A DNA stretch of 63,318 bases from a virus (lineage: Duplodnaviria; Caudoviricetes): the IMG/VR virus record IMGVR_UViG_3300032227_001118, positions 1-63,318 of that record; one strand, 5' to 3'. The translations under genes and the position numbers were made by a program. Shown here piece after piece: positions 21,436 to 63,318 of the stretch (its first letter is position 1; the number at the start of each line of letters is the position of its first letter). The notes below the pieces were generated by a model. That model had not been told where the DNA came from and did not search any database. It worked only from the letters and a program-made list of their open reading frames with translations.

Positions 21436-22656
21436 TTAAACATTGGCAATGCTAACAACTCCAGTTGACGCAGCACTGATAGTCCACCCTGCGGAAGATC
21501 CGTCGGCAAATCTATATCCTGCTCCGGCACTGGTTTTACGAGTTAGATAAGCTCTACGTGCCGTTAACTTATTAACATAATAAGTACAACCTTCTGTATC
21601 GGTGGCAATTAAACACATTTCACCAGCCGATAAACTTCCAGCATCTTTGGCCACTAAACGACACTGTCCAACAAGACCACTATTACTTCTAGTCTTAACT
21701 AGATAACGACGACTAGATTCTTGCTTCATAATATCAGCAAGAACACCAGTTGACCCACCGGCAATATGAACATAAACTGCTATACCCGACTGATACAAAC
21801 TGGTTAATACAGATGTACCGGCTGCTGTTCCACCACTAAATGCAACGGCAGCATCGGCTACGTTAATATAGTGACTTCCGGCATTAGTGATCTCAACACC
21901 ACTTACTCCAAAAGTAATTGTTGCGGCTGCACCTGTACCAGAGCCTCCCGTGAAGCCGGCTGGGTTAGATGGCATTACTGTGTAATCACCCTGAACAGCA
22001 ACATTACCAAAGGAATAAACACCCCAGTTAGCACCGGTAAAACTAAGCACTAGGCCGTTACCGTTGTCATCAACTGGACCCCCCGATGTTGTAGCAGTGA
22101 AACCATTTACACCATCTGCCATGCTTGTCGGAAAAGCACCTGTACCTGTCCATACACCTTGTTGCTCAACTACGATTGAAGTTGCAATACCACCACCAGC
22201 AGCAGCAGTAACTCTAACTCTCAAGGGAGTTGACAAGTAAATGTGTGTGAAAGTAACTCTATCACCGTTAGATCCAGTACCAGGATCATAAATTGTACCA
22301 CCGTTGGTAATACCAGGTGTACCAAGACCTACGATAGCAGCCACTGGGAAAGTTGCAGCTGAAGTTCTTGTGCCGCCTGCTACTGTCAGCACATCTCCCA
22401 CACGATACCCGGTACCGTTGGAAGTGGTGGCCGCCGACAATGCATTACCGTGAACAATACCTGTGGCCTGTACACCCAACGCTAAATCAGGTATACCAAA
22501 TGACACTGTAGGTAATCCTGATGTATATGAACCAACTGTGTTGATTGTTACACTGGCAACACCTTCACCACCTTCACCAGTTGCACCACCTGTGGCCTGA
22601 TTTTGGTAAGGCGAGTTTAAATTCGCAAAAAATCTCTTTTTAATTGGACGTCCCAT
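21436..22656 (-). CDS. Virion structural protein (Gly/Thr-rich beta repeats; possible head decoration/head fibre)
   Basis: 406 aa; MGRPIKK start; repeated V.ITNxGSxY units; immediately downstream of MCP with its own promoter and strong AAGGAG RBS. Confidence 0.6.
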   Translation of the reverse strand: MGRPIKKRFFANLNSPYQNQATGGATGEGGEGVASVTINTVGSYTSGLPTVSFGIPDLALGVQATGIVHGNALSAATTSNGTGYRVGDVLTVAGGTRTSAATFPVAAIVGLGTPGITNGGTIYDPGTGSNGDRVTFTHIYLSTPLRVRVTAAAGGGIATSIVVEQQGVWTGTGAFPTSMADGVNGFTATTSGGPVDDNGNGLVLSFTGANWGVYSFGNVAVQGDYTVMPSNPAGFTGGSGTGAAATITFGVSGVEITNAGSHYINVADAAVAFSGGTAAGTSVLTSLYQSGIAVYVHIAGGSTGVLADIMKQESSRRYLVKTRSNSGLVGQCRLVAKDAGSLSAGEMCLIATDTEGCTYYVNKLTARRAYLTRKTSAGAGYRFADGSSAGWTISAASTGVVSIANV

Positions 22657-22737
22657 TTTATTTCTCCTTATGAAATGTAGCGTTCAATGCTCTACGCGGC
22701 GGGGACCGCATAAACCCCCTGTCGGGGCGAACATTAT
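22657..22737 (-). promoter_or_regulatory. Structured 5' leader (candidate cis-regulatory RNA)
   Basis: GC-rich 80 nt between promoter and RBS: CCCC-GACA-GGGG hairpin, UAUGCGG/CCGCGUA hairpin, GUUC/GAAC closing stem. Confidence 0.5.
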
Positions 22738-22745
22738 TATTTATA
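22738..22745 (-). promoter_or_regulatory. T4-type late promoter TATAAATA
   Basis: Exact consensus directly after the MCP terminator. Confidence 0.75.
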
Positions 22746-22751
22746 ACATCA

Positions 22752-22777
22752 ACAAAAAACGCCCCGGAGGGCGTTTT
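22752..22777 (-). terminator. Rho-independent terminator after MCP
   Basis: Minus strand AAAACGCCC-TCCG-GGGCGTTTTTTGTT. Confidence 0.9.
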
Positions 22778-22806
22778 CTGTTTGTTGCTTTTGTGTTGCT
22801 TTCTGA

Positions 22807-25743: not shown

Positions 25744-26775
25744 TTAGGCGTTGCGATTAGGAGCACCGTTTAGCGGGCTCTTAACTTGACCAACACTGGT
25801 CTGGCCAGCCTTGTCGCCTGTTCCACTTCCAACCGGACCTGGGGTCTTGTTGTTGCCTGGGTATCCAGAACCTTGCTTGTTTAGAGCAGCACCATCTTTC
25901 ATGCTGGCTTTTGCGCTACTGGCAATATTCTTTTCAACACCTTTAGTAAACTGACCGCCACTCTTAAGTAGACCGCCAACTTTACCACGTGGTGTTGTAC
26001 CGTCTTCGTCTGCTGTAGCACTCTTACCTAGGATGTTTTTAGCATCGGCGCCAGTTGTTGGCTTGCCTTTACCGCTGCTTACAATACTCTTGGTATTGGT
26101 ACCACTGGGCATTTTCTCGCCTGTGTTAGCACCTGCGATACCGCCTTCGGCAGCACCTTTCTTTTCAGCACCGTGACCGGCAGGGACAGCTTCGCGATAT
26201 TCACGTAAACGACGTCCTTCAAAAAAGCCCATTTCAAGCTCTTCATCACCTTCTTCGTCGCCAAACTCGTCGCCGCCCATTTCTTCGTCGCCAAACTCGT
26301 CGCCGCCCATTTCTCCACCTTGAGCTGCTTCTAATTCAGCAAAGGCTGCTTCTAGTTCTTCAATGGCGTTTTTGATGTCAAACATGGCCTGTTCTTCGCC
26401 ACCTTCTTCACCGTCCATTTCGTCGCCCATGGTGTCCATGCCTAAATCGTCTGTGGCATCACCGGCTGCAAAACCGTTATCGTCTTCTTCGTCATCGGCT
26501 TCCATTGAAAAACTATCTTCTAGTTCTTCGTCACCTTCGTCCATTTCTTCATCGGCACCTTCGTCGACTTCATCGTCCATAGACTCATCCATCTCGTCGT
26601 CGGCACCTTCGTCCATTTCCTCGTCCTTCATGGACTCATCCATTTCCTCATCGGCAATGAGGTTCTCATAAATTGTTCTTGACTTTTCTACAACGATTTC
26701 ATGGAAAAGCTCATTGGCCTTATCCATTTCTTCGTTTACTAGATAGTCTAATAGTTGTTCAAATTTCGTAGACAT
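25744..26775 (-). CDS. Prohead core/internal protein (acidic N-half, basic Gly/Lys C-half)
   Basis: ATG at 26775 after GGAG; lies between portal and protease like T4 gp67/gp68; D/E/M-rich repeats. Confidence 0.65.
   Translation of the reverse strand: MSTKFEQLLDYLVNEEMDKANELFHEIVVEKSRTIYENLIADEEMDESMKDEEMDEGADDEMDESMDDEVDEGADEEMDEGDEELEDSFSMEADDEEDDNGFAAGDATDDLGMDTMGDEMDGEEGGEEQAMFDIKNAIEELEAAFAELEAAQGGEMGGDEFGDEEMGGDEFGDEEGDEELEMGFFEGRRLREYREAVPAGHGAEKKGAAEGGIAGANTGEKMPSGTNTKSIVSSGKGKPTTGADAKNILGKSATADEDGTTPRGKVGGLLKSGGQFTKGVEKNIASSAKASMKDGAALNKQGSGYPGNNKTPGPVGSGTGDKAGQTSVGQVKSPLNGAPNRNA
26251..26310 (-). repeat. Exact 30-bp tandem duplication (MGGDEFGDEE)
   Basis: ttcttcgtcgccaaactcgtcgccgcccat x2. 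Confidence 0.9.
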
Positions 26776-26954
26776 TTGCAAATTCTCCTATAGGGTAGCG
26801 GCAAGGCTATACTATATTTAAGATCATTACAAATATGCTACAGGAAATAGGCCAAAAACACGCAATTTTGGTCCTGAGAGGTAGAATTTAATAAATTCTG
26901 TTGTGGTTTCGTTTAAAATATTTAGCTTTAAAAAATCAAAGTTATATACATAGT

Positions 26955-31106: not shown

Positions 31107-31979
31107 ATGACTATTCAAGCAAAAGTAAATCCCTTACTTGGCTACATGAGACAACCAAAGATCTATGTTCGATTACCGAGTAATGGTCTTTTTTGGGAAG
31201 AAGGCAGTATTGACATGCCAGAGAATAGCGAACTTCCAGTATATTCAATGTCAGCAAAAGACGAATTAACATTTAAAACTCCTGATGCATTAATGAATGG
31301 TCAAGCAGTTGTTGATGTTATTCAAAGTTGTATTCCTAATATAAAAGATGCATGGCGGTGTCCGGGCATAGATGTAGACCTTATATTAATTGCAATTAGG
31401 ATTGCGACCTATGGAGGTATGATGACAATCTCTCATCGAGTCCCTGGAACCGACGATACAGTTGATCACGAGATCGACCTTACCGCAGTAATGGATCAGA
31501 TTTTATCTACAACTCAATGGAACGAAACGGTAGAAATTAGTCCAGGCATTATATGTGGTGTTAAACCGTTATCTTATAGGCTCATGACAGATGTTAGTAT
31601 TAGGACGTTTGAATCACAAAAAACCATACAGTCTATTGCCGACTCTGATCTAACAGATGAACAAAAATTGGAATTTTTTAATCAAGGAATATCAAAACTA
31701 ACCGATCTCACAGTGGAAATGATTGCAGAAAGTGTGTTCTATGTAAAGACCCCAGATAACTTTGTTGAAGATAAGACATTTATCCAAGAGTTTATTAAAA
31801 ATGCAGATGCAGGTCTCATACAGAAAATTCAAGACCTTATCAATGAAAATAAAAAGACTATAGGTATCTTACCGCTAACTGTTCATGCTACAGAAGAACA
31901 GATTCTTGCCGGAGTACCCGAATCTTATGAGTTACCTATTACCATGGACAACTCTAATTTTTTCGTTCGCGGCTCTTAA
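31107..31979 (+). CDS. gp26: Baseplate hub assembly protein (T4 gp26-like) / tail assembly chaperone
   Basis: RQPKIYVRLPS.G, MSAKDEL, IQSCIP, DVDLILIAIRIATYG motifs; ends ...SNFFVRGS. Confidence 0.75.
   Translation: MTIQAKVNPLLGYMRQPKIYVRLPSNGLFWEEGSIDMPENSELPVYSMSAKDELTFKTPDALMNGQAVVDVIQSCIPNIKDAWRCPGIDVDLILIAIRIATYGGMMTISHRVPGTDDTVDHEIDLTAVMDQILSTTQWNETVEISPGIICGVKPLSYRLMTDVSIRTFESQKTIQSIADSDLTDEQKLEFFNQGISKLTDLTVEMIAESVFYVKTPDNFVEDKTFIQEFIKNADAGLIQKIQDLINENKKTIGILPLTVHATEEQILAGVPESYELPITMDNSNFFVRGS
31958..31964 (+). other. Candidate -1 ribosomal frameshift heptamer T_TTT_TTC
   Basis: X_XXY_YYZ pattern in the correct phase (AAT TTT TTC), 4 codons before the stop; -1 frame opens exactly here. 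Confidence 0.75.
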
Positions 31980-32194
31980 CATTATCTAACGATGAAATTA
32001 TCAAACTAGTTGAGAGCCTTGAAAAAGAATCAAAATCATTGAAGAAAGAATTATTTAGATTATGTTGGTACATGAGAGGATCTATTACTATAGAGCAAGC
32101 CTTTCAATTAGATTTTGAAAACAGAGAAATCATTAACGGTATTATTAGTGAGAACTTAGAAACAACGAAGGAAAGCGGACTTCCTTTCTTTTAA
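31958..32194 (+). CDS. -1 frame extension of gp26-like gene (gp51-like / 'T' ORF); absent from ORF track
   Basis: FFRSRLLTLSNDEIIKLVESLEKESKSLKKELFRLCWYMRGSITIEQAFQLDFENREIINGIISENLETTKESGLPFF*; preceded by in-frame TAA at 31955-57; no start codon near its 5' end. Confidence 0.75.
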   Translation, partial: FFRSRLLTLSNDEIIKLVESLEKESKSLKKELFRLCWYMRGSITIEQAFQLDFENREIINGIISENLETTKESGLPFF

Positions 32195-32625
32195 TACTGA
32201 GAAGTGAACTACGTTCACTTGATATTTCGCGCGAAGCGCTCATATCCTATGGTCTTCTTCGAAGAAGATAATAATATTATCCAGATTCAATGGTCACACT
32301 TCGCCCGCACAGGGCAAAGAGTGTTGAACATTATCCGAGTTCTTACGTTCACTTAGTGTTAGAGCGTTACAGAGGCGGTCATCCGGTACCTCGAGCTCCG
32401 TCTTCGATATGACGGCAGCATAACAATATACACTAACATATTGGTATGCCCAGGGTTTCTCTCCCTTCTTTTGGCCTGTTAATCCTTTTCAAACAACCAA
32501 ATAGCGGCATTTTGCTATCCTCATCCTTGCGGGTAGTGGTTGAGTCCTCCTAACGGCTGGAGTTTTTCATCCCTGTGACACGCATGTCCAGGTTTAGAAT
32601 CGCATGAAATTAGCCTGCGATAGCC
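32195..32625 (-). ncRNA. Candidate large (~430 nt) structured non-coding RNA, unassigned
   Basis: ORF-free, GC-richer than flanks, at least 10 hairpins/long-range stems; a G-U wobble and a GNRA loop favour the minus strand. Confidence 0.55.
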
Positions 32626-33462
32626 TTAACCGTTAAATTGCCAATCTAAAATTTTATTACAGGATTTTACTATTGTTATTATGTCTTTTTGATTATTATA
32701 TTGTTTGTTATTAATGGTTTTTAATTTGCCTAAGTTGATATATCCAACAGCCAGTTTAGGATCTTCTAATTTATAGGGCCATGATAATTTGCTAGTATTA
32801 TAAAAGTTTTTAAATATTTCGGATAAGTTTGGTATAGTAAAAAATCTTAATGTATGATATGATGAATATTGGTACTGTGGTATTATTTGATCTTTTGGAC
32901 AATCTATATCATTAGATAAAAACAATTCTATAGGGTGTCTACCTACATGGCAATATTGTAATGTTAAATCTCCAAAATTAACATATGGTTTAAAAAATTT
33001 AAAATCTTCATCATCTATTTTTATTTTATGGGAATTATCACAACATAATAGTAGGTATATATTTTCTTTTCTAGATTTATTTAAAATTTGTTGCAACCCG
33101 TGAATCAAATCATTAAATCTTGTAAACTGATTTCTTTTTATAGGATCTAATTCTTCTTTTTCTAATTCAGGAAAATGTATGTGTAAACAATTTAAACTTT
33201 TAATAGGATCATTTATTTGCCACTTATTTTCTATTTTTACAGGCAACCAACAGTTTAATTCATCAATTACTTCATTAAAGTCATTTACTAAATCATTATA
33301 TGTTGATAATATACCTCTCCAAGGATTTAAACTTTTTCTAAGATCTATAGGTGATGTTTCTTTAGATAGGTTTACCCAATTTTTAGTAGGAGCATCGTCA
33401 TTTAGTTCATACGAAAATATAAACTGTTCTAATCCATTAGAAAGTATAATTTCATAGTTCAT
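32626..33462 (-). CDS. AT-rich hypothetical protein
   Basis: Probable ATG at 33462 (MNYEIILSNG...) overlapping the end of the GIY-YIG gene; composition far more AT-rich than neighbours; no family recognised. Confidence 0.7.
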   Translation of the reverse strand: MNYEIILSNGLEQFIFSYELNDDAPTKNWVNLSKETSPIDLRKSLNPWRGILSTYNDLVNDFNEVIDELNCWLPVKIENKWQINDPIKSLNCLHIHFPELEKEELDPIKRNQFTRFNDLIHGLQQILNKSRKENIYLLLCCDNSHKIKIDDEDFKFFKPYVNFGDLTLQYCHVGRHPIELFLSNDIDCPKDQIIPQYQYSSYHTLRFFTIPNLSEIFKNFYNTSKLSWPYKLEDPKLAVGYINLGKLKTINNKQYNNQKDIITIVKSCNKILDWQFNG

Positions 33463-33889
33463 TAAATTTTCCGTTAATATGTTTGCCATGTATGCGACAG
33501 TTTATAATGCCATTGTAATAATCATCTGATTCTAATACTCGACGTTCAAACTGTTCGCGTGCCTCAACGTAGCTGGTTTCTGCCTTGCTGCCACAATAAT
33601 GAATTATTTCTCTGGTGAAATTTTCTTTGCCTAATTTTTCTATATCTTCATGGAGGTTAGGACTACTGCCCCAATATTCTTTCCAATCACTGTCTATTTT
33701 GCCTTTAATTCGCTTTCGCTTTTTTGTGCCGTTTTTTAATTTAATTGTTTTATATGTGATTTTACTGAACTTGGCTAGTTTTTTGCCTATGTATTTTCTG
33801 CCTGTAGGAATACATGTGATAATATACACATATCCAACACACTCCTCGGGCAGTTCTTCAATGACTGTACCTTGATAGGTCCAAGTCAT
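33452..33889 (-). CDS. GIY-YIG endonuclease (Seg/EndoII-like, single domain)
   Basis: GYVYIIT....GRKYIGKK, YWGSS, F.REII, catalytic-type E (YVE) and YYN motifs. Confidence 0.85.
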   Translation of the reverse strand: MTWTYQGTVIEELPEECVGYVYIITCIPTGRKYIGKKLAKFSKITYKTIKLKNGTKKRKRIKGKIDSDWKEYWGSSPNLHEDIEKLGKENFTREIIHYCGSKAETSYVEAREQFERRVLESDDYYNGIINCRIHGKHINGKFNEL

Positions 33890-61093: not shown

Positions 61094-63318
61094 ATGTCTT
61101 ATTTATTGAAATTTTCCGATGATAATAAGAACGATATTATAGTTCCTGCTATGCCGCCCGGCATCAATGCAGTTGATACAAGTTTAAGTTTGGTAGGTAG
61201 AGGATATCCCAACTATGGTGAAAAAATAGCAGAAAATTTTTTACACCTATTAGAAAATTTTGCCAAATATGCTTCTCCTGAAAATCCTATAGAGGGACAG
61301 TTATGGTACGATACCAGTGACCCCGATAATAAAGTATTGAGAGTTATGGATGGAACAAGTTGGCCAAGTGTAAGTGGAATATACCGACAGCCATCTGATC
61401 CAAAGTTAGGAACCAATTCGGGGTTAAAAGACGGCGATATTTGGGTCGATACTGACAAGTCTCAACTTAAAATTTATAGGTCTGGAAATTGGAACACTGT
61501 AGGTCCTACTACTTCGACAAATACTGGACCCGTTGTTGCCACATTGTCGGCATTATCTGGTGGAACACACGATGTCATATTAAACAAAGCGGAAGGCAAT
61601 GTTATATCTATTGTAACAAATAGTGCTTTTACGATCGGTCCGGATATACCACAAGAAGTTGAAGGATTTAGAACATTAACTACCGGAACAAATTTAGCCA
61701 CTGGATCTATTCTCAATGGAACGGCATTGACTGCGTTGAATTTATCTATTGACGATTTTACCTATCGTGCTTCGACCTTTTTAAGAAAGGATAATCCAGG
61801 CGGAGAAATAATTACAGGCAAAGTTCGTTTTGTTGGAAGTTATGGTGTAACAATCTCTTCTAATTCCGGGGATAATACTCCTATTCAGTTTTATAAGAAT
61901 ATTAATGATGCGGTAGTTCTTAATAATACACCCGGTGGGAAATTAATATTTAGAACTGTAGGTACTACACCCGGAATATCAGATTCTATGTATATAGAAA
62001 AAGATCTGGTAAAAGTTAATATCACTACCGAGGCCACTAGTCCTAGAAGAGGTGCTTTAGTAGTTGCTGGAGGATTAGCAGTCGGCGGGAATCTTCACGT
62101 AGGTAAGGAATTATATGTTAATACATTTACTTTTAATACATTGATATTAAGGAGTACAACAATATCGGTATCTACTAATACAGGTGCATTACAAGTGCGC
62201 GGTGGAGTTGGTATTGGTGGTAATTTAAATGTTGGCAGAATCTTAAAGATTTTTGGTACAAATAATTCCACATCAACTGCCACTGGTTCATTACAGGTAA
62301 TAGGAGGGGTTGGTATTGGTGGTAGATTGAATGTTGGTAATACCGCAACAATCTATAGTATAGCCGTATCAACCTCTACAACCACCGGTGCTTTGACTGT
62401 TGTTGGCGGAGTTGGTATCGGTGGTAGATTGAATATTGGTAATACCGCAACTATCTATAGTACAGCCGCATCAATATCGACCAACACAGGTGCTTTACAA
62501 GTAGCAGGAGGTGTTGGTATTGGTGATAGATTGAATATTGGTAATACCGCAACTATCTATAGTACAGCCGCATCAACATCAACTACCACTGGCGCTTTAC
62601 AAGTAGTAGGAGGTGTTGGTATCGGTGGTAATTTAAATGTTGGTAGTACATCGTCGGTTTTTGGTAATTCGTATATTGGTGAAAATACATCAACAACTTA
62701 TATTGGTGGTTATAATAAATGGCTTGTTCTTGATGGAATTCCAAAAGAAACAACCGTGGGTATAGCCGGAATTGAACTTAGAGGAGGTTCTTTTTCCGGC
62801 AACGGCATACAAAGCCAAATTAATTTTGTTGCTCGTACAACAGGCGGAACCGATGCCAACTCGGGTAGAATAGAACTTACCAACAGTGCAAACAAGACTA
62901 ACACCGGTATAATGAAAATATATACTGCCGGGTTTACGAGCGGGTTAGTTGAAGCATTACGAATTGATGATTCTCAAATAGTTTCAGTTCGAAGTAATGA
63001 AATTTCAACATCAACTACCACTGGCGCTTTACAAGTAGTAGGAGGTGTTGGTATCGGTGGTAGTTTAAATGTAGGTGGTCTGGCCAATAACACTTCTTCC
63101 TATATTGTTTACTATAACACATCTACTGGTGCATTCAGCTACGGTGCTAATACCGGAGGAGTGGCCGGCGGACCAAGTGGCGTAGGAAGTCCCGGGCCAA
63201 CTGGACCAAGTGGACCAAGTGGCGTAGGAAGTCCCGGGCCAACTGGACCAAGTGGACCAAGTGGCCCTGCTAACGGTCCATCCGGACCAAGTGGACCAAG
63301 TGGATCAAGTGGACCAAG
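61094..63318 (+). CDS. Baseplate-attached tail fibre protein, truncated at window end (absent from ORF track)
   Basis: ATG at 61094: MSYLLKFSDD...SLSLVGRGYPNYGEKIAENFLHLLENFA..PENPIEGQLWYD; GGVGIGG repeats; collagen at the end in the same frame. Confidence 0.85.
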   Translation, partial: MSYLLKFSDDNKNDIIVPAMPPGINAVDTSLSLVGRGYPNYGEKIAENFLHLLENFAKYASPENPIEGQLWYDTSDPDNKVLRVMDGTSWPSVSGIYRQPSDPKLGTNSGLKDGDIWVDTDKSQLKIYRSGNWNTVGPTTSTNTGPVVATLSALSGGTHDVILNKAEGNVISIVTNSAFTIGPDIPQEVEGFRTLTTGTNLATGSILNGTALTALNLSIDDFTYRASTFLRKDNPGGEIITGKVRFVGSYGVTISSNSGDNTPIQFYKNINDAVVLNNTPGGKLIFRTVGTTPGISDSMYIEKDLVKVNITTEATSPRRGALVVAGGLAVGGNLHVGKELYVNTFTFNTLILRSTTISVSTNTGALQVRGGVGIGGNLNVGRILKIFGTNNSTSTATGSLQVIGGVGIGGRLNVGNTATIYSIAVSTSTTTGALTVVGGVGIGGRLNIGNTATIYSTAASISTNTGALQVAGGVGIGDRLNIGNTATIYSTAASTSTTTGALQVVGGVGIGGNLNVGSTSSVFGNSYIGENTSTTYIGGYNKWLVLDGIPKETTVGIAGIELRGGSFSGNGIQSQINFVARTTGGTDANSGRIELTNSANKTNTGIMKIYTAGFTSGLVEALRIDDSQIVSVRSNEISTSTTTGALQVVGGVGIGGSLNVGGLANNTSSYIVYYNTSTGAFSYGANTGGVAGGPSGVGSPGPTGPSGPSGVGSPGPTGPSGPSGPANGPSGPSGPSGSSGP
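62150..62650 (+). repeat. 102-bp (34-aa) tandem coding repeats GALQVxGGVGIGGxLNxGNTATIYSTAASTSTTT
   Basis: aataccgcaac recurs at 62339, 62441, 62543. Confidence 0.85.

Follow-up and report, generated by a model that had tools for sequence, protein, structure and literature searches.

We asked what is encoded by the longest stretch without open reading frames in a DNA of 63,318 nucleotides from a tailed phage (the window, an 18%-complete genome fragment), on which strand it acts, and whether it belongs to a catalogued family. With ORFs of at least 60 aa counted, the stretch spans positions 31980-32625 (646 nt; the runner-up measures 173 nt), and its GC content of 0.45-0.465 is higher than that of the left (0.31-0.36) and right (0.24-0.29) flanks, both as a preliminary description of the locus had noted. 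Within it, positions 32039-32194 hold a conserved 51-aa ORF, which leaves about 32195-32625 as truly non-coding, the interval given in that description. The next gene, on the plus strand, is convergent, the flanking genes are complete, and the locus adjoins a match to PF12322 (baseplate-hub gene cluster) at 31107-31979.

Homologues were collected with an nhmmer profile, and the element was present in 188 of the 225 sequences searched. The 135 full-length copies formed 71 clusters at 90% identity, and the cluster representatives made up the alignment used for covariation, the test on homologues that the preliminary description had suggested. Over a curated structure with 67 pairs, two pseudoknots included (4714 cells in 71 relatives), 96.2% of cells were paired, compared with 81.9% after shuffling, where none of 500 shuffles attained the observed level, and with 36.7-43.5% in slid alignments. 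Compensatory changes on both sides of a pair were found in 48 of 67 pairs and in 624 cells, against 158 cells in the shuffles. Moreover, 47 positions were invariant in the 71 sequences, and many unpaired bases were invariant. G-U or U-G cells numbered 317 across the 67 pairs and A-C or C-A cells only 55, an excess indicating that the minus strand is the RNA strand.

By contrast, single-sequence folding energy gave a weak and unremarkable signal (z of -2.18 on the minus strand and -1.83 on the plus strand), so the case for an RNA rests on comparison with relatives. An energy barely better than that of shuffled sequences, and similar on both strands, would favour an element working at the DNA level, or hairpins clustered by chance. 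This view has next to no probability: the compensatory changes, the G-U asymmetry and a covariance-model score of 114.5 bits all oppose it, and it is already refuted as far as sequence comparison goes. On the comparative evidence, positions 32200-32625 of the minus strand encode a structured non-coding RNA of about 425 nt. This agrees with the large, densely structured RNA that the preliminary description had placed on the minus strand at the end of a gp55-gp47-gp46-Hc1-GIY-YIG run, and it is conserved and covarying in many related phage contigs. Its 5' end (32625) was fixed by the match to the Rfam family RF01718, and its 3' end was placed, presumptively, by the last conserved hairpin. Its parts are as follows.

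32200-32625, minus strand: whole RNA gene, about 425 nt, with a 5' domain, a knotted 3' domain and tail hairpins (nhmmer and covariation)
32491-32625, minus strand: 5' domain, equal to RF01718, with helices P1, P2, P3, P4, P4a and P4b (135 nt, cmscan)
32452-32466, minus strand: P5 hairpin (AGGG/CCCU in the window), folding at least 3 pairs in 71/71 relatives with differing stem sequences
32417-32450, minus strand: P6 long hairpin, whose loop (32430-32436) is the 5' strand of pseudoknot PK; all 7 counted pairs change on both sides
32409-32413, minus strand: P7 5' strand (GUCAU), second pseudoknot; covariation sum 2.18, with 3/5 pairs changing on both sides
32361-32399, minus strand: P8 (32395-32399 with 32361-32365; 4/5 pairs change on both sides) enclosing P9 (32389-32393 with 32370-32375)
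32378-32382, minus strand: P7 3' strand (AUGAC), within the P9 loop, covarying with 32409-32413
32353-32359, minus strand: PK 3' strand, partner of the P6 loop at 32430-32436; highest covariation sum of all helices
32299-32319, minus strand: P10 hairpin between the twin words; 98.8% paired, with 4/8 pairs changing on both sides
32254-32267, minus strand: P11 small hairpin, with a UUCG-type loop in relatives; found in relatives' tails with differing stems, outside the formal count
32221-32246, minus strand: P12, a variable 5-bp stem with the conserved loop GAGCG-N-(A)GCGAA; strict pattern in 34/71 tails
32202-32220, minus strand: P13 terminal hairpin, at a position conserved in relatives; likely 3' end

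The preliminary description had drawn eleven helices from the letters of the window, and covariation in the 71 relatives bears out nine of them. These comprise P1 (AUCGCA/UGCGAU), P2 (CCUGGACA/UGUCaCAGG), P3 (CUCC/GGAG), P4 (CAACCA/UGGUUG) with its GCAA-loop stem and a UAGC/GCUA stem, the long P6 hairpin (GCAUA..CAAUAU), and P10 (CUUUGCCC/GGGCGAAG), which has G-U pairs on the minus strand only. They also include the proposed pseudoknot between the P6 loop (32430-32436) and 32353-32359, where every one of the 7 pairs shows double-sided changes, with 96.7% of cells paired. Two other proposals came out differently. The GAGG part of the nested GAGG-CGG stems holds in part, as P9 (CGAGG/CCUCUG), and the columns of the inner CGG stem never vary, so that covariation says nothing of it. 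A local CCGUC/GACGG hairpin is unsupported; GUCAU (32413-32409) covaries with AUGAC (32382-32378) instead, forming a second pseudoknot. Pair 309/327 of P9 switches between A-U (50) and U-A (19). P5, being out of register in the alignment, was left out of the curated count of 67 pairs, and the outer part of the P6 stem is poorly aligned. Looser variants of the P12 pattern are found in other tails, and the same loop occurs in the bacterial copies described below. A consensus scan for a canonical terminator at P13 gave none; this hairpin is possibly a two-way terminator common to the RNA and the convergent plus-strand gene.

As to family membership, cmscan matched RF01718 (Polynucleobacter-1) at full length, over model positions 1-141 of 141, with 114.5 bits against a gathering score of 37 (E 4.1e-24), and a search for RF01718 in the element's own genome had the same outcome. 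The helices of this family (1-6 of the curated set) were 94.1-100% paired, with changes on both sides in 21 of 30 pairs. The preliminary description had recognised no known RNA at the locus and had made its novelty conditional on the lack of an Rfam match. That novelty is lost for the 5' third, one third of the element, and stands for the remaining 290 nt or so, which are uncatalogued and as conserved as the catalogued part. Between 31900 and 32900, at E-values up to 10, no other Rfam family was matched except in two chance-level miRNA rows; this covers group I and group II introns, tRNA, tmRNA, RNase P RNA, GOLLD, ROOL, HEARO and other catalogued large RNAs, and the self-cleaving ribozyme classes. 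An Rfam E-value scan of the 3' part likewise gave no match, and ARAGORN returned 0 tRNA or tmRNA genes in the window. With regard to introns, the genes on either side are also intact and convergent. The label "ribozyme-sized" in the preliminary description fits the length, and the analysis gave no sign of catalysis.

The conserved unit measures 400-470 nt, not about 140 nt, in phages and in Polynucleobacter copies. The 3' domain was never seen without the 5' domain, partial matches sat at locus ends, and in 14/14 loci where nhmmer had missed the 5' part RF01718 was present at 58-90 bits. The RNA, as these matches have it, is a member of a known family in its 5' third and an uncatalogued domain in its 3' two thirds. 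A search of the literature for Polynucleobacter-1 or RF01718 found no description of a 3' extension, and the 2010 survey by Weinberg et al. was the sole return by name. The available text of that survey (Genome Biol 11:R31, PMC2864571) treats Polynucleobacter-1 as a probable RNA that is probably cis-regulatory, with riboswitch status open, and gives its habitat as fresh water and Burkholderiales, which resembles the lake-water runs and Polynucleobacter genomes encountered here. By contrast, the catalogued motif has 141 positions, to which the present RNA adds two pseudoknots, twin words and three tail hairpins, and the convergent next gene in the window does not fit the cis-regulatory judgement in the part of that survey available (PMC2864571). 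What was catalogued in 2010 as a probable leader of 141 nt turns out to open a longer RNA, of 400-470 nt and with two knots, a finding that for the databases corrects both the boundaries of RF01718 and its presumed mode of action. In a 2023 survey of IMG/VR (PMC10690425), the available text lists candidates of 29-151 nt and states that regions overlapping Rfam were discarded; its supplementary tables may hold pieces of the 3' domain.

The preliminary description took the element for a phage RNA. It does occur in many phages, and it is also found in mobile elements of Polynucleobacter, where RF01718 scored above cut-off in 17 of 151 genomes. All 14 chromosomal copies examined have the whole RNA architecture and lie within integrative elements. 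Their neighbours (14/14) are a divergent DUF6641 gene, a gene for a 188-aa integrase-fold protein, an AAA ATPase gene and one for a 423-aa integrase, with no nuclease gene. ORFs on the same strand follow the bacterial RNA, and the one directly downstream differs between copies. Fourteen stretches of 14-16 kb around these loci held no tRNA gene adjoining the RNA, the sole one being about 4.5 kb away (in L379). No DUF6641 gene was seen in the window, which is far from a complete genome, and control genomes gave no signal either. Neither the locus nor a typical relative had a blastn match in a collection of 50,697 phage records. Judging from the loci collected, many uncultured T4-like phages of lakes have the RNA, and it is conserved as a single unit in them and in the integrative elements of Polynucleobacter, an abundant freshwater bacterium. 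A pattern scan of genome contigs returned mostly chance matches, with 1 full copy among the 120 stretches listed.

Metatranscriptome contigs offer weak evidence of transcription. Contigs 90-95% like the RNA region were present in four lake-water runs from four studies; such contigs give neither strand nor ends, and DNA carry-over is possible. They cover the RNA region and little else, and their source is relatives aligning only at the most conserved DNA, so that uncovered flanks were not read as silent.

We next consider the genes upstream of the RNA, two of which lie in the window.

33452-33889, minus strand: gene for a minimal GIY-YIG nuclease, 145 aa (PF19835, E 3.8e-32)
32626-33489, minus strand: 287-aa ORF that separates the nuclease gene from the RNA and lies outside the latter (GC 0.23-0.29)

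Among 145 phage loci with enough flank, the GIY-YIG gene was upstream of the RNA in 142, at most 300 nt away in 135 and further in 7. In the remaining 3 loci its place is taken by a 171-aa ORF that ends 12-15 nt before the RNA; a scan of two of these ORFs identified each as a PD-(D/E)XK nuclease (PF24608, E about 1e-25). A nuclease gene of either fold directly precedes the RNA in 138/145 phage loci, and in 7, the window included, inserted genes of 0.7-1.8 kb intervene. The phage RNA begins 0-17 nt past the upstream stop codon. For the 287-aa ORF, no Pfam or PHROG family was found and a homologue occurs in only 2/188 loci, the window counted; the contig of one relative joins the GIY-YIG gene to the RNA without it. 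The GIY-YIG proteins have 134-162 aa, of which residues 3-129 form the domain, and the catalytic motifs are conserved in 129 distinct homologues; no sequence relative was found among solved structures. A free-standing, seg-like homing endonuclease does not agree with these features, as the protein has no room for a DNA-binding domain and the gene is near-fixed (142/145), not patchy. A GIY-YIG homologue is also encoded in 232 phage records, and two whole genomes checked, both of cultured phages, were without RF01718. Obligate co-occurrence of RNA and nuclease therefore fails in both directions, with cultured phages that have the nuclease and no RNA, and bacterial copies of the RNA that have no adjacent nuclease (14/14).

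A further feature of the 3' domain is a short word that is written twice, once on either side of P10.

32330-32337, minus strand: twin word copy 1 (CGGAUAAU), sharing mutual information with copy 2
32276-32283, minus strand: twin word copy 2 (UGGAUAAU), sharing mutual information with copy 1

At all 4 variable positions, mutual information between the copies equalled the column entropy (71 sequences), a measure that shared ancestry can inflate for identical copies; the same variants recur in dissimilar sequences. The phage 7-mers were identical in 170/188 loci and came in 8 variants. Exactly two copies of the word were present in 172 loci, and four more had a third occurrence, in the 5' domain. 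Bacterial words differ from those of phages (AUCAAAAG, AGAGAAAG, AGCGAAAG, AACAAAAG and GGAGAAAG); as 8-mers, the two copies were identical in 8 of 14 bacterial RNAs and 1-2 letters apart in 6. Two genomes (G111 and G020) each have two RNA copies, with different words.

The twin words are probably single-stranded, as suggested by the lack of a covarying partner in an alignment whose quality around them is low. Several pairings were tried and rejected: local hairpins presenting the words, pairing between the two linkers around the words, and pairing of the words with a U-rich stretch ending the 5' domain. None of these showed covariation, and mismatches fell exactly where the words vary. The idea that the stretch between the words is coding or a rolling template was discarded on its spacing of 47-58 nt, which divides over the three remainders modulo 3 as 18, 31 and 22 of the 71 sequences. 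Slippage or copy-number variation of the word-flanked unit was dismissed too, there being no locus with one unit or three. Phages have 8 variants of the word and bacteria 5 or more, and the flanks examined contained no target: within 3 kb of 170 phage loci neither the word nor its complement was enriched at any position, and within 8 kb of the 14 bacterial elements there was no consistent partner site, a weak cluster 5.8-6.6 kb downstream in 4/14 loci being distrusted. As a dispersed motif in the 63-kb window the word is not in excess (5+7 occurrences versus 5.8+6.7 expected). Two of its occurrences, near 61.8 kb, fall inside a coding ORF, and AAGUG(U)GAC look-alikes at the contig end were set aside as collagen-like coding repeats.

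The reading that we favour, and to which we give about an even chance of being right, is that mobile elements encode a stand-alone RNA which acts in trans and presents a single word, specific to the element, in two copies to a reader. In phages, the RNA would be the final segment of the leftward nuclease operon to be transcribed and would end at the terminal hairpin; in the bacterial elements it would have room for a promoter of its own. Its knotted core would most likely act in trans as a rigid scaffold, holding two unpaired copies of a purine-rich word of 7-8 nt about 50-60 nt apart, on either side of P10. A two-fold reader would then bind both copies at once, in the form of two copies of a complementary nucleic-acid word or of a dimeric protein. 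Such a reader would be specific to the element, since both copies always vary in step and different words occur in two elements of a single bacterial genome. The flanking nuclease gene would be a long-standing neighbour and not a required partner, and the output could be control of the element's replication, recombination or expression. Two observations sit uneasily with the stand-alone reading: a neutral neighbour does not explain a nuclease gene directly before the RNA in so large a share of phage loci, and no reader was found in the phage flanks (3 kb), the bacterial flanks (8 kb) or the 63-kb window.

The constancy of that neighbour, together with the swap between unrelated folds in which PD-(D/E)XK replaces GIY-YIG (3 loci, two of them scanned) and the small size and conserved catalytic motifs of a GIY-YIG protein lacking space for its own DNA-binding domain, would suit an RNA that is the partner of the upstream nuclease, in an RNA-guided or RNA-regulated particle whose target choice is given by the twin words. 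We consider this unlikely, however, since the whole RNA exists without an adjacent nuclease gene in every bacterial copy, insertions of up to 1.8 kb are tolerated between the two in 7 loci, and the nuclease is found in many phage records in a collection where blastn finds no RNA, two whole genomes among them being without RF01718. Nor was a variable, guide-like segment seen, the words having only 8 variants in 170 loci. A related idea is that of an addressing device for DNA enzymes without a targeting domain of their own, in which the two words would each pair with a short sequence shared by two DNA partners or sites, such as a pair of recombination sites with identical crossover cores or a pair of origin marks. 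Specificity would thereby be given to the minimal GIY-YIG or PD-(D/E)XK nuclease in phages and to the 188-aa integrase-fold protein in Polynucleobacter. We regard it as a long shot; were it true, it would amount to a DNA transaction programmed by RNA in a new way, with a scaffold that has no relation to CRISPR, omega or bridge RNAs.

It is as improbable as the nuclease partnership, in our estimate, that the RNA is a replication element, a structured transcript that primes or licenses DNA synthesis (as an R-loop or primer RNA) with the words as iteron-like marks for the element's own initiator. The RNA is confined to self-replicating mobile elements (phages and integrative elements), its words are specific to the element, with different ones in two elements sharing a genome, and its locus is beside the baseplate-hub cluster, near which one T4 origin is presumably located. 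By contrast, 96% pair conservation, two pseudoknots and many invariant unpaired bases exceed the known needs of a primer transcript, iterons usually come in larger arrays than two short words, and the G-U asymmetry implies selection on the RNA, not only on DNA. A cis-acting element of an mRNA, either a leader or riboswitch for the downstream gene or a 3' UTR stabiliser of the nuclease message, is quite improbable. The grading of Polynucleobacter-1 as probably cis-regulatory in the available text of PMC2864571, the start of the phage RNA so soon after a stop codon and the same-strand ORFs after the bacterial RNA all speak for it. The 2010 judgement, however, had 141 nt to go by, and neither the 290-nt remainder nor the terminal hairpins. 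In addition, the next gene is convergent in the window and many relatives, which leaves no downstream gene to regulate; the following ORF differs between bacterial copies, and upstream genes differ as well (GIY-YIG, PD-(D/E)XK, inserted ORFs or none). We hold it very improbable that the RNA is self-processing, with the words as two identical cleavage or ligation sites at which a segment of about 50-60 nt, P10 included, is cut free or closed into a circle. Two identical sites do flank a conserved hairpin, 47-58 nt apart in phages, and a ribozyme-like size, a pseudoknotted core and the 47 invariant positions agree with the idea. Against this, no self-cleaving class or intron is matched at E up to 10, no RNA contig has an end or joint at the words (contigs being poor evidence here), and known ribozyme cleavage sites need no joint variation between lineages.

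Compared with other systems, the stand-alone RNA that we favour resembles GOLLD, ROOL, OLE and HEARO in its length of several hundred nucleotides, heavy covariation, many invariant unpaired bases and frequent phage or mobile-element context. The functions of those four were unknown when they were discovered. They differ from it in that the locus has no Rfam match to them, and to our knowledge none has twin identical words. For three of these families, the available part of a preprint reports multimers (bioRxiv 10.1101/2024.12.08.627333). Bacteria and phages have few large RNAs with such elaborate folds and without a known function, and those later explained have led to new biochemistry. Here, the most unusual trait, a word that is written twice, whose copies co-mutate and which differs between two elements in one genome, makes the question of the reader directly testable, and the length of the RNA suits it to in vitro transcription, probing, pull-downs and cryo-EM. 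A likeness by analogy, not membership, exists to the c4 antisense RNA of phages P1 and P7, also a phage RNA with short element-specific recognition sequences, whose way of working corresponds to one option of the reading that we favour. At a much smaller size, c4 has two short sequences that are unlike each other and whose pairing sites, in its own operon, are known. By contrast, the words here are identical and have no complementary site within 3-8 kb. The name of the c4 family is itself listed in a table in the available text of the 2010 survey (PMC2864571).

The element lies in 31980-32625, at 646 nt the window's longest stretch lacking ORFs of at least 60 aa (the next longest is 173 nt); GC content there is 0.45-0.465 as against 0.24-0.36 in the flanks. 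The preliminary description had started from this length and this contrast, and its raw observation was therefore correct. The viral contig of 63,318 bases is rated about 18% complete, and its genes are arranged around the gap as follows.

Leftward, up to the 287-aa ORF: gp55-, gp47- and gp46-like proteins, a 104-aa ORF, an Hc1-like protein and a 145-aa GIY-YIG protein (PF19835)
32626-33489, minus strand: 287-aa ORF, its stop side at 32626 bordering the gap
31107-31979: baseplate gene (PF12322), converging on the gap from the other side
32039-32194, plus strand: 51-aa ORF 3' of the baseplate gene, converging on the same gap

With homologues at 89 of 188 loci, the 51-aa ORF is probably a real small gene; neither Pfam nor PHROG has a family for it. 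The 287-aa ORF, situated between the RNA and the GIY-YIG gene, is very low in GC (0.23-0.29) and likewise matches no family in Pfam or PHROG. Its start overlaps the GIY-YIG gene end by 38 nt, and just two of the 188 loci, one of them the window, have a homologue; it looks like a recent insertion.

With gathering thresholds applied, an Rfam scan of the window recovered RF01718 (Polynucleobacter-1) over its full model length at 32491-32625, minus strand, scoring 114.5 bits where 37 would suffice. Beyond RF01718, a permissive scan of 31900-32900 returned nothing except two chance-level miRNA rows. The earlier claim that no known RNA matches thus fails for the 5' third; judging by these scans, the known family covers only one third of the RNA. 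In the 2010 defining paper (PMC2864571), Polynucleobacter-1 is listed as a probable RNA with a probable cis-regulatory role, occurring in Burkholderiales and in fresh water or estuary. A full-text literature search by family name or accession gave nothing besides that paper.

Next, we investigated the extent of the conserved unit. A pattern of the 5' domain matched six viral contigs, and RF01718 is present in five of these; conservation along the aligned RNA strands of the six extends about 250 nt past the Rfam model. At least about 120 viral stretches were matched by a pattern of the 3' part, and at least about 120 by an independent pattern of the 5' part. By profile search the element is present in 188 of 225 sequences (224 loci and the window), and the 135 full-length copies form 71 clusters at 90% identity. 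Partial profile matches were situated at locus ends. The profile missed the 5' part in 16 loci, and a complete RF01718 was located directly upstream in all 14 of these that were scanned. No 3' domain without a 5' domain was seen among the collected loci. The conserved unit, as delimited by these comparisons, is about three times as long as the catalogued motif.

RNAalifold applied to an alignment of 71 representatives (A1) gave 54 pairs, 37 with compensatory changes, and a covariation scan of A1 added two pseudoknots. The curated structure, counted on the same representatives, comprises 67 pairs in 13 helices. Its cells are paired in 96.2% of cases, compared with 81.9% after shuffling (none of 500 shuffles reached 96.2%) and 36.7-43.5% with the partners slid. 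Changes on both sides affect 48 of the 67 pairs and 624 cells, compared with 33.3 pairs and 158 cells in the shuffled control, and the covariation score is 0.428 as against 0.164. The covariation among relatives that had been put forward as a check is thus present. The best-supported helix is a pseudoknot already proposed in the preliminary description, between the P6 loop (32430-36) and 32353-59, with all seven pairs changing on both sides. A CCGUC/GACGG hairpin suggested there is replaced by the second pseudoknot, GUCAU (32413-09) with AUGAC (32382-78), whose 3' strand is within the P9 loop. The P5 hairpin folds in 71 of 71 sequences, though A1 has it out of register. There are 317 G-U cells as against 55 A-C cells, indicating that the RNA strand is the minus strand, as originally read. 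Single-sequence folding energy is unremarkable (z = -2.18 for the minus strand, -1.83 for the plus strand). As far as comparing sequences can establish an RNA gene, this one is established. Four lake-water metatranscriptome runs, each of a different study, contain contigs 90-95% similar to the RNA region; belonging to relatives, these contigs indicate presence in RNA libraries, not strand, ends or level. One of them joins the GIY-YIG gene end to the 5' domain, without the 287-aa insert of the window.

The 3' domain holds one short word twice.

32337-30 and 32283-76, minus strand: twin words of 8 nt each, flanking hairpin P10

Downstream of the second word, relatives keep a small UUCG-type hairpin, a stem (P12) with a conserved GAGCG-N-AGCGAA loop and a terminal hairpin (P13), so that the RNA of the window spans about 32200-32625. 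The words vary at four positions, and the copies agree at each in 71 of 71 sequences; mutual information between them equals the column entropy at these positions, with no other column near. Twin 7-mers are identical in 170 of 188 loci (GGAUAAU 66, GCAUAAU 52, GGAUGAU 15, AGAUAAU 12, GAAUAAU 10, GGAUGAA 8, AGAUGAA 6, AGAUGAU 1). Exactly two copies are found in 172 loci, and four more have a third copy in the 5' domain; fewer than two are present in 12 loci, 11 of which are cut by a locus end. In a few relatives (L104, L022 and L097) P2 is remodelled and its loop holds the same 7-letter word as a third copy, which may be chance. The spacing between the words is 47-58 nt, not in multiples of three. 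No complementary partner was found in the RNA, the flanks or the window, nor any convincing local hairpin presenting the words.

Upstream neighbours were counted in the 145 loci whose upstream flank measures 700 nt or more. A GIY-YIG homologue ends within 300 nt of the RNA in 135; in seven, including the window, inserted ORFs separate it from the RNA and place it 0.7-1.8 kb upstream, and these ORFs include one for a radical-SAM/B12 protein. Three loci carry a 171-aa ORF instead, ending 12-15 nt 5' of the RNA.

L190, 4127-4642: 171-aa ORF directly before the RNA
L154, 1257-1772: the same
L210, 5439-5954: the same

In both of the loci scanned among these three, this ORF is a PD-(D/E)XK nuclease (PF24608); by family assignment, unrelated nuclease folds are swapped at one position. 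The GIY-YIG proteins (134-162 aa) have conserved motifs and no sequence relative among solved structures. Among cultured phages, 232 records contain a homologue; most are of cyanophages, and the closest homologue is that of Methylophilales phage Melnitz (49% identity). In Melnitz and Synechococcus phage BUCT-ZZ01 the gene has a different context, and RF01718 is absent from both whole genomes. At the other end of the RNA, tails of many relatives (e.g. L159, L173, L084) show ATAAATAA directly 3' of the terminal hairpin and then a same-strand gene. This sequence resembles the T4 late-promoter consensus, and the RNA end may double as an operon boundary.

Among the listed genome-collection matches there was one full copy, on a 9.2-kb contig (L348; contig C80 of G001) of a Polynucleobacter-labelled MAG. 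This contig also encodes gp46 and a GIY-YIG gene, and its RNA is of phage type; most likely, binning has grouped a T4-like phage contig with the genome of its host, a hint that phages of this group infect Polynucleobacter. The same MAG contains a second, divergent copy. RF01718 scored above the cut-off in 17 of 151 Polynucleobacter genomes and in 4 of 151 sampled across the order, the starting genome counted among the four. Fourteen chromosomal copies (L372-L384 and L349) align over about 470 nt and retain the 3' domain, the twin words and the P12 loop, which is common to phage and bacterial copies. Their words are unlike those of phages (AUCAAAAG, AGAGAAAG, AGCGAAAG, AACAAAAG, GGAGAAAG); the twin 8-mers are identical in eight copies and one or two letters apart in six. 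Two genomes (G111 and G020) have two copies, or modules, each, with different twin words. One module is common to all 14, with a divergent DUF6641 gene 100-190 nt upstream of the RNA.

Bacterial module: DUF6641, RNA, variable ORF, 188-aa integrase-fold gene, two unknown genes, AAA ATPase, 423-aa integrase

The AAA ATPase is present in 13 of 14 modules and the 423-aa integrase in most; the 188-aa protein is an integrase catalytic domain alone. No nuclease gene adjoins the RNA in the 14 bacterial copies.

We ask whether the nuclease could be the partner of the RNA. The swap of two nuclease folds at the same spot would fit a partnership, but bacterial copies lack an adjoining nuclease and inserts between nuclease and RNA are tolerated, and we consider this unlikely. 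The same two observations, together with the occurrence of the RNA in two unrelated kinds of mobile element, suggest that it works alone, with the nuclease as a neighbour of long standing. The lack of a same-strand downstream gene in phages argues for this as well, and a cis-acting role, which the 2010 description favoured, seems very unlikely.

The twin words, in turn, point to an element-specific reader, since without one the copies should diverge and a single cell should not harbour two elements with different words. The words would be read by something that differs between elements, and a two-fold reader could be a nucleic acid or a dimeric protein. Our preferred reading, with about even chances, is that the RNA acts in trans as a scaffold and presents the same word twice to such a reader. 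A function in replication control is improbable, and self-processing of the RNA is very unlikely.

Elsewhere in the window, RF02980 (freshwater-2 RNA) matches 22654-22729 on the minus strand with 52.8 bits (cut-off, 49.9), in a 150-nt ORF-free gap (22657-22806). Look-alikes of one RNA motif near the contig end were rejected; they are produced by collagen-like Gly-Pro-Ser coding repeats, especially at 63150-63318, that end an ORF of at least 741 aa (61094-63316, plus strand) running off the contig. A 345-aa ORF (25744-26781, minus strand) includes an extended low-complexity segment that is extremely acidic and enriched in Asp, Glu and Met.
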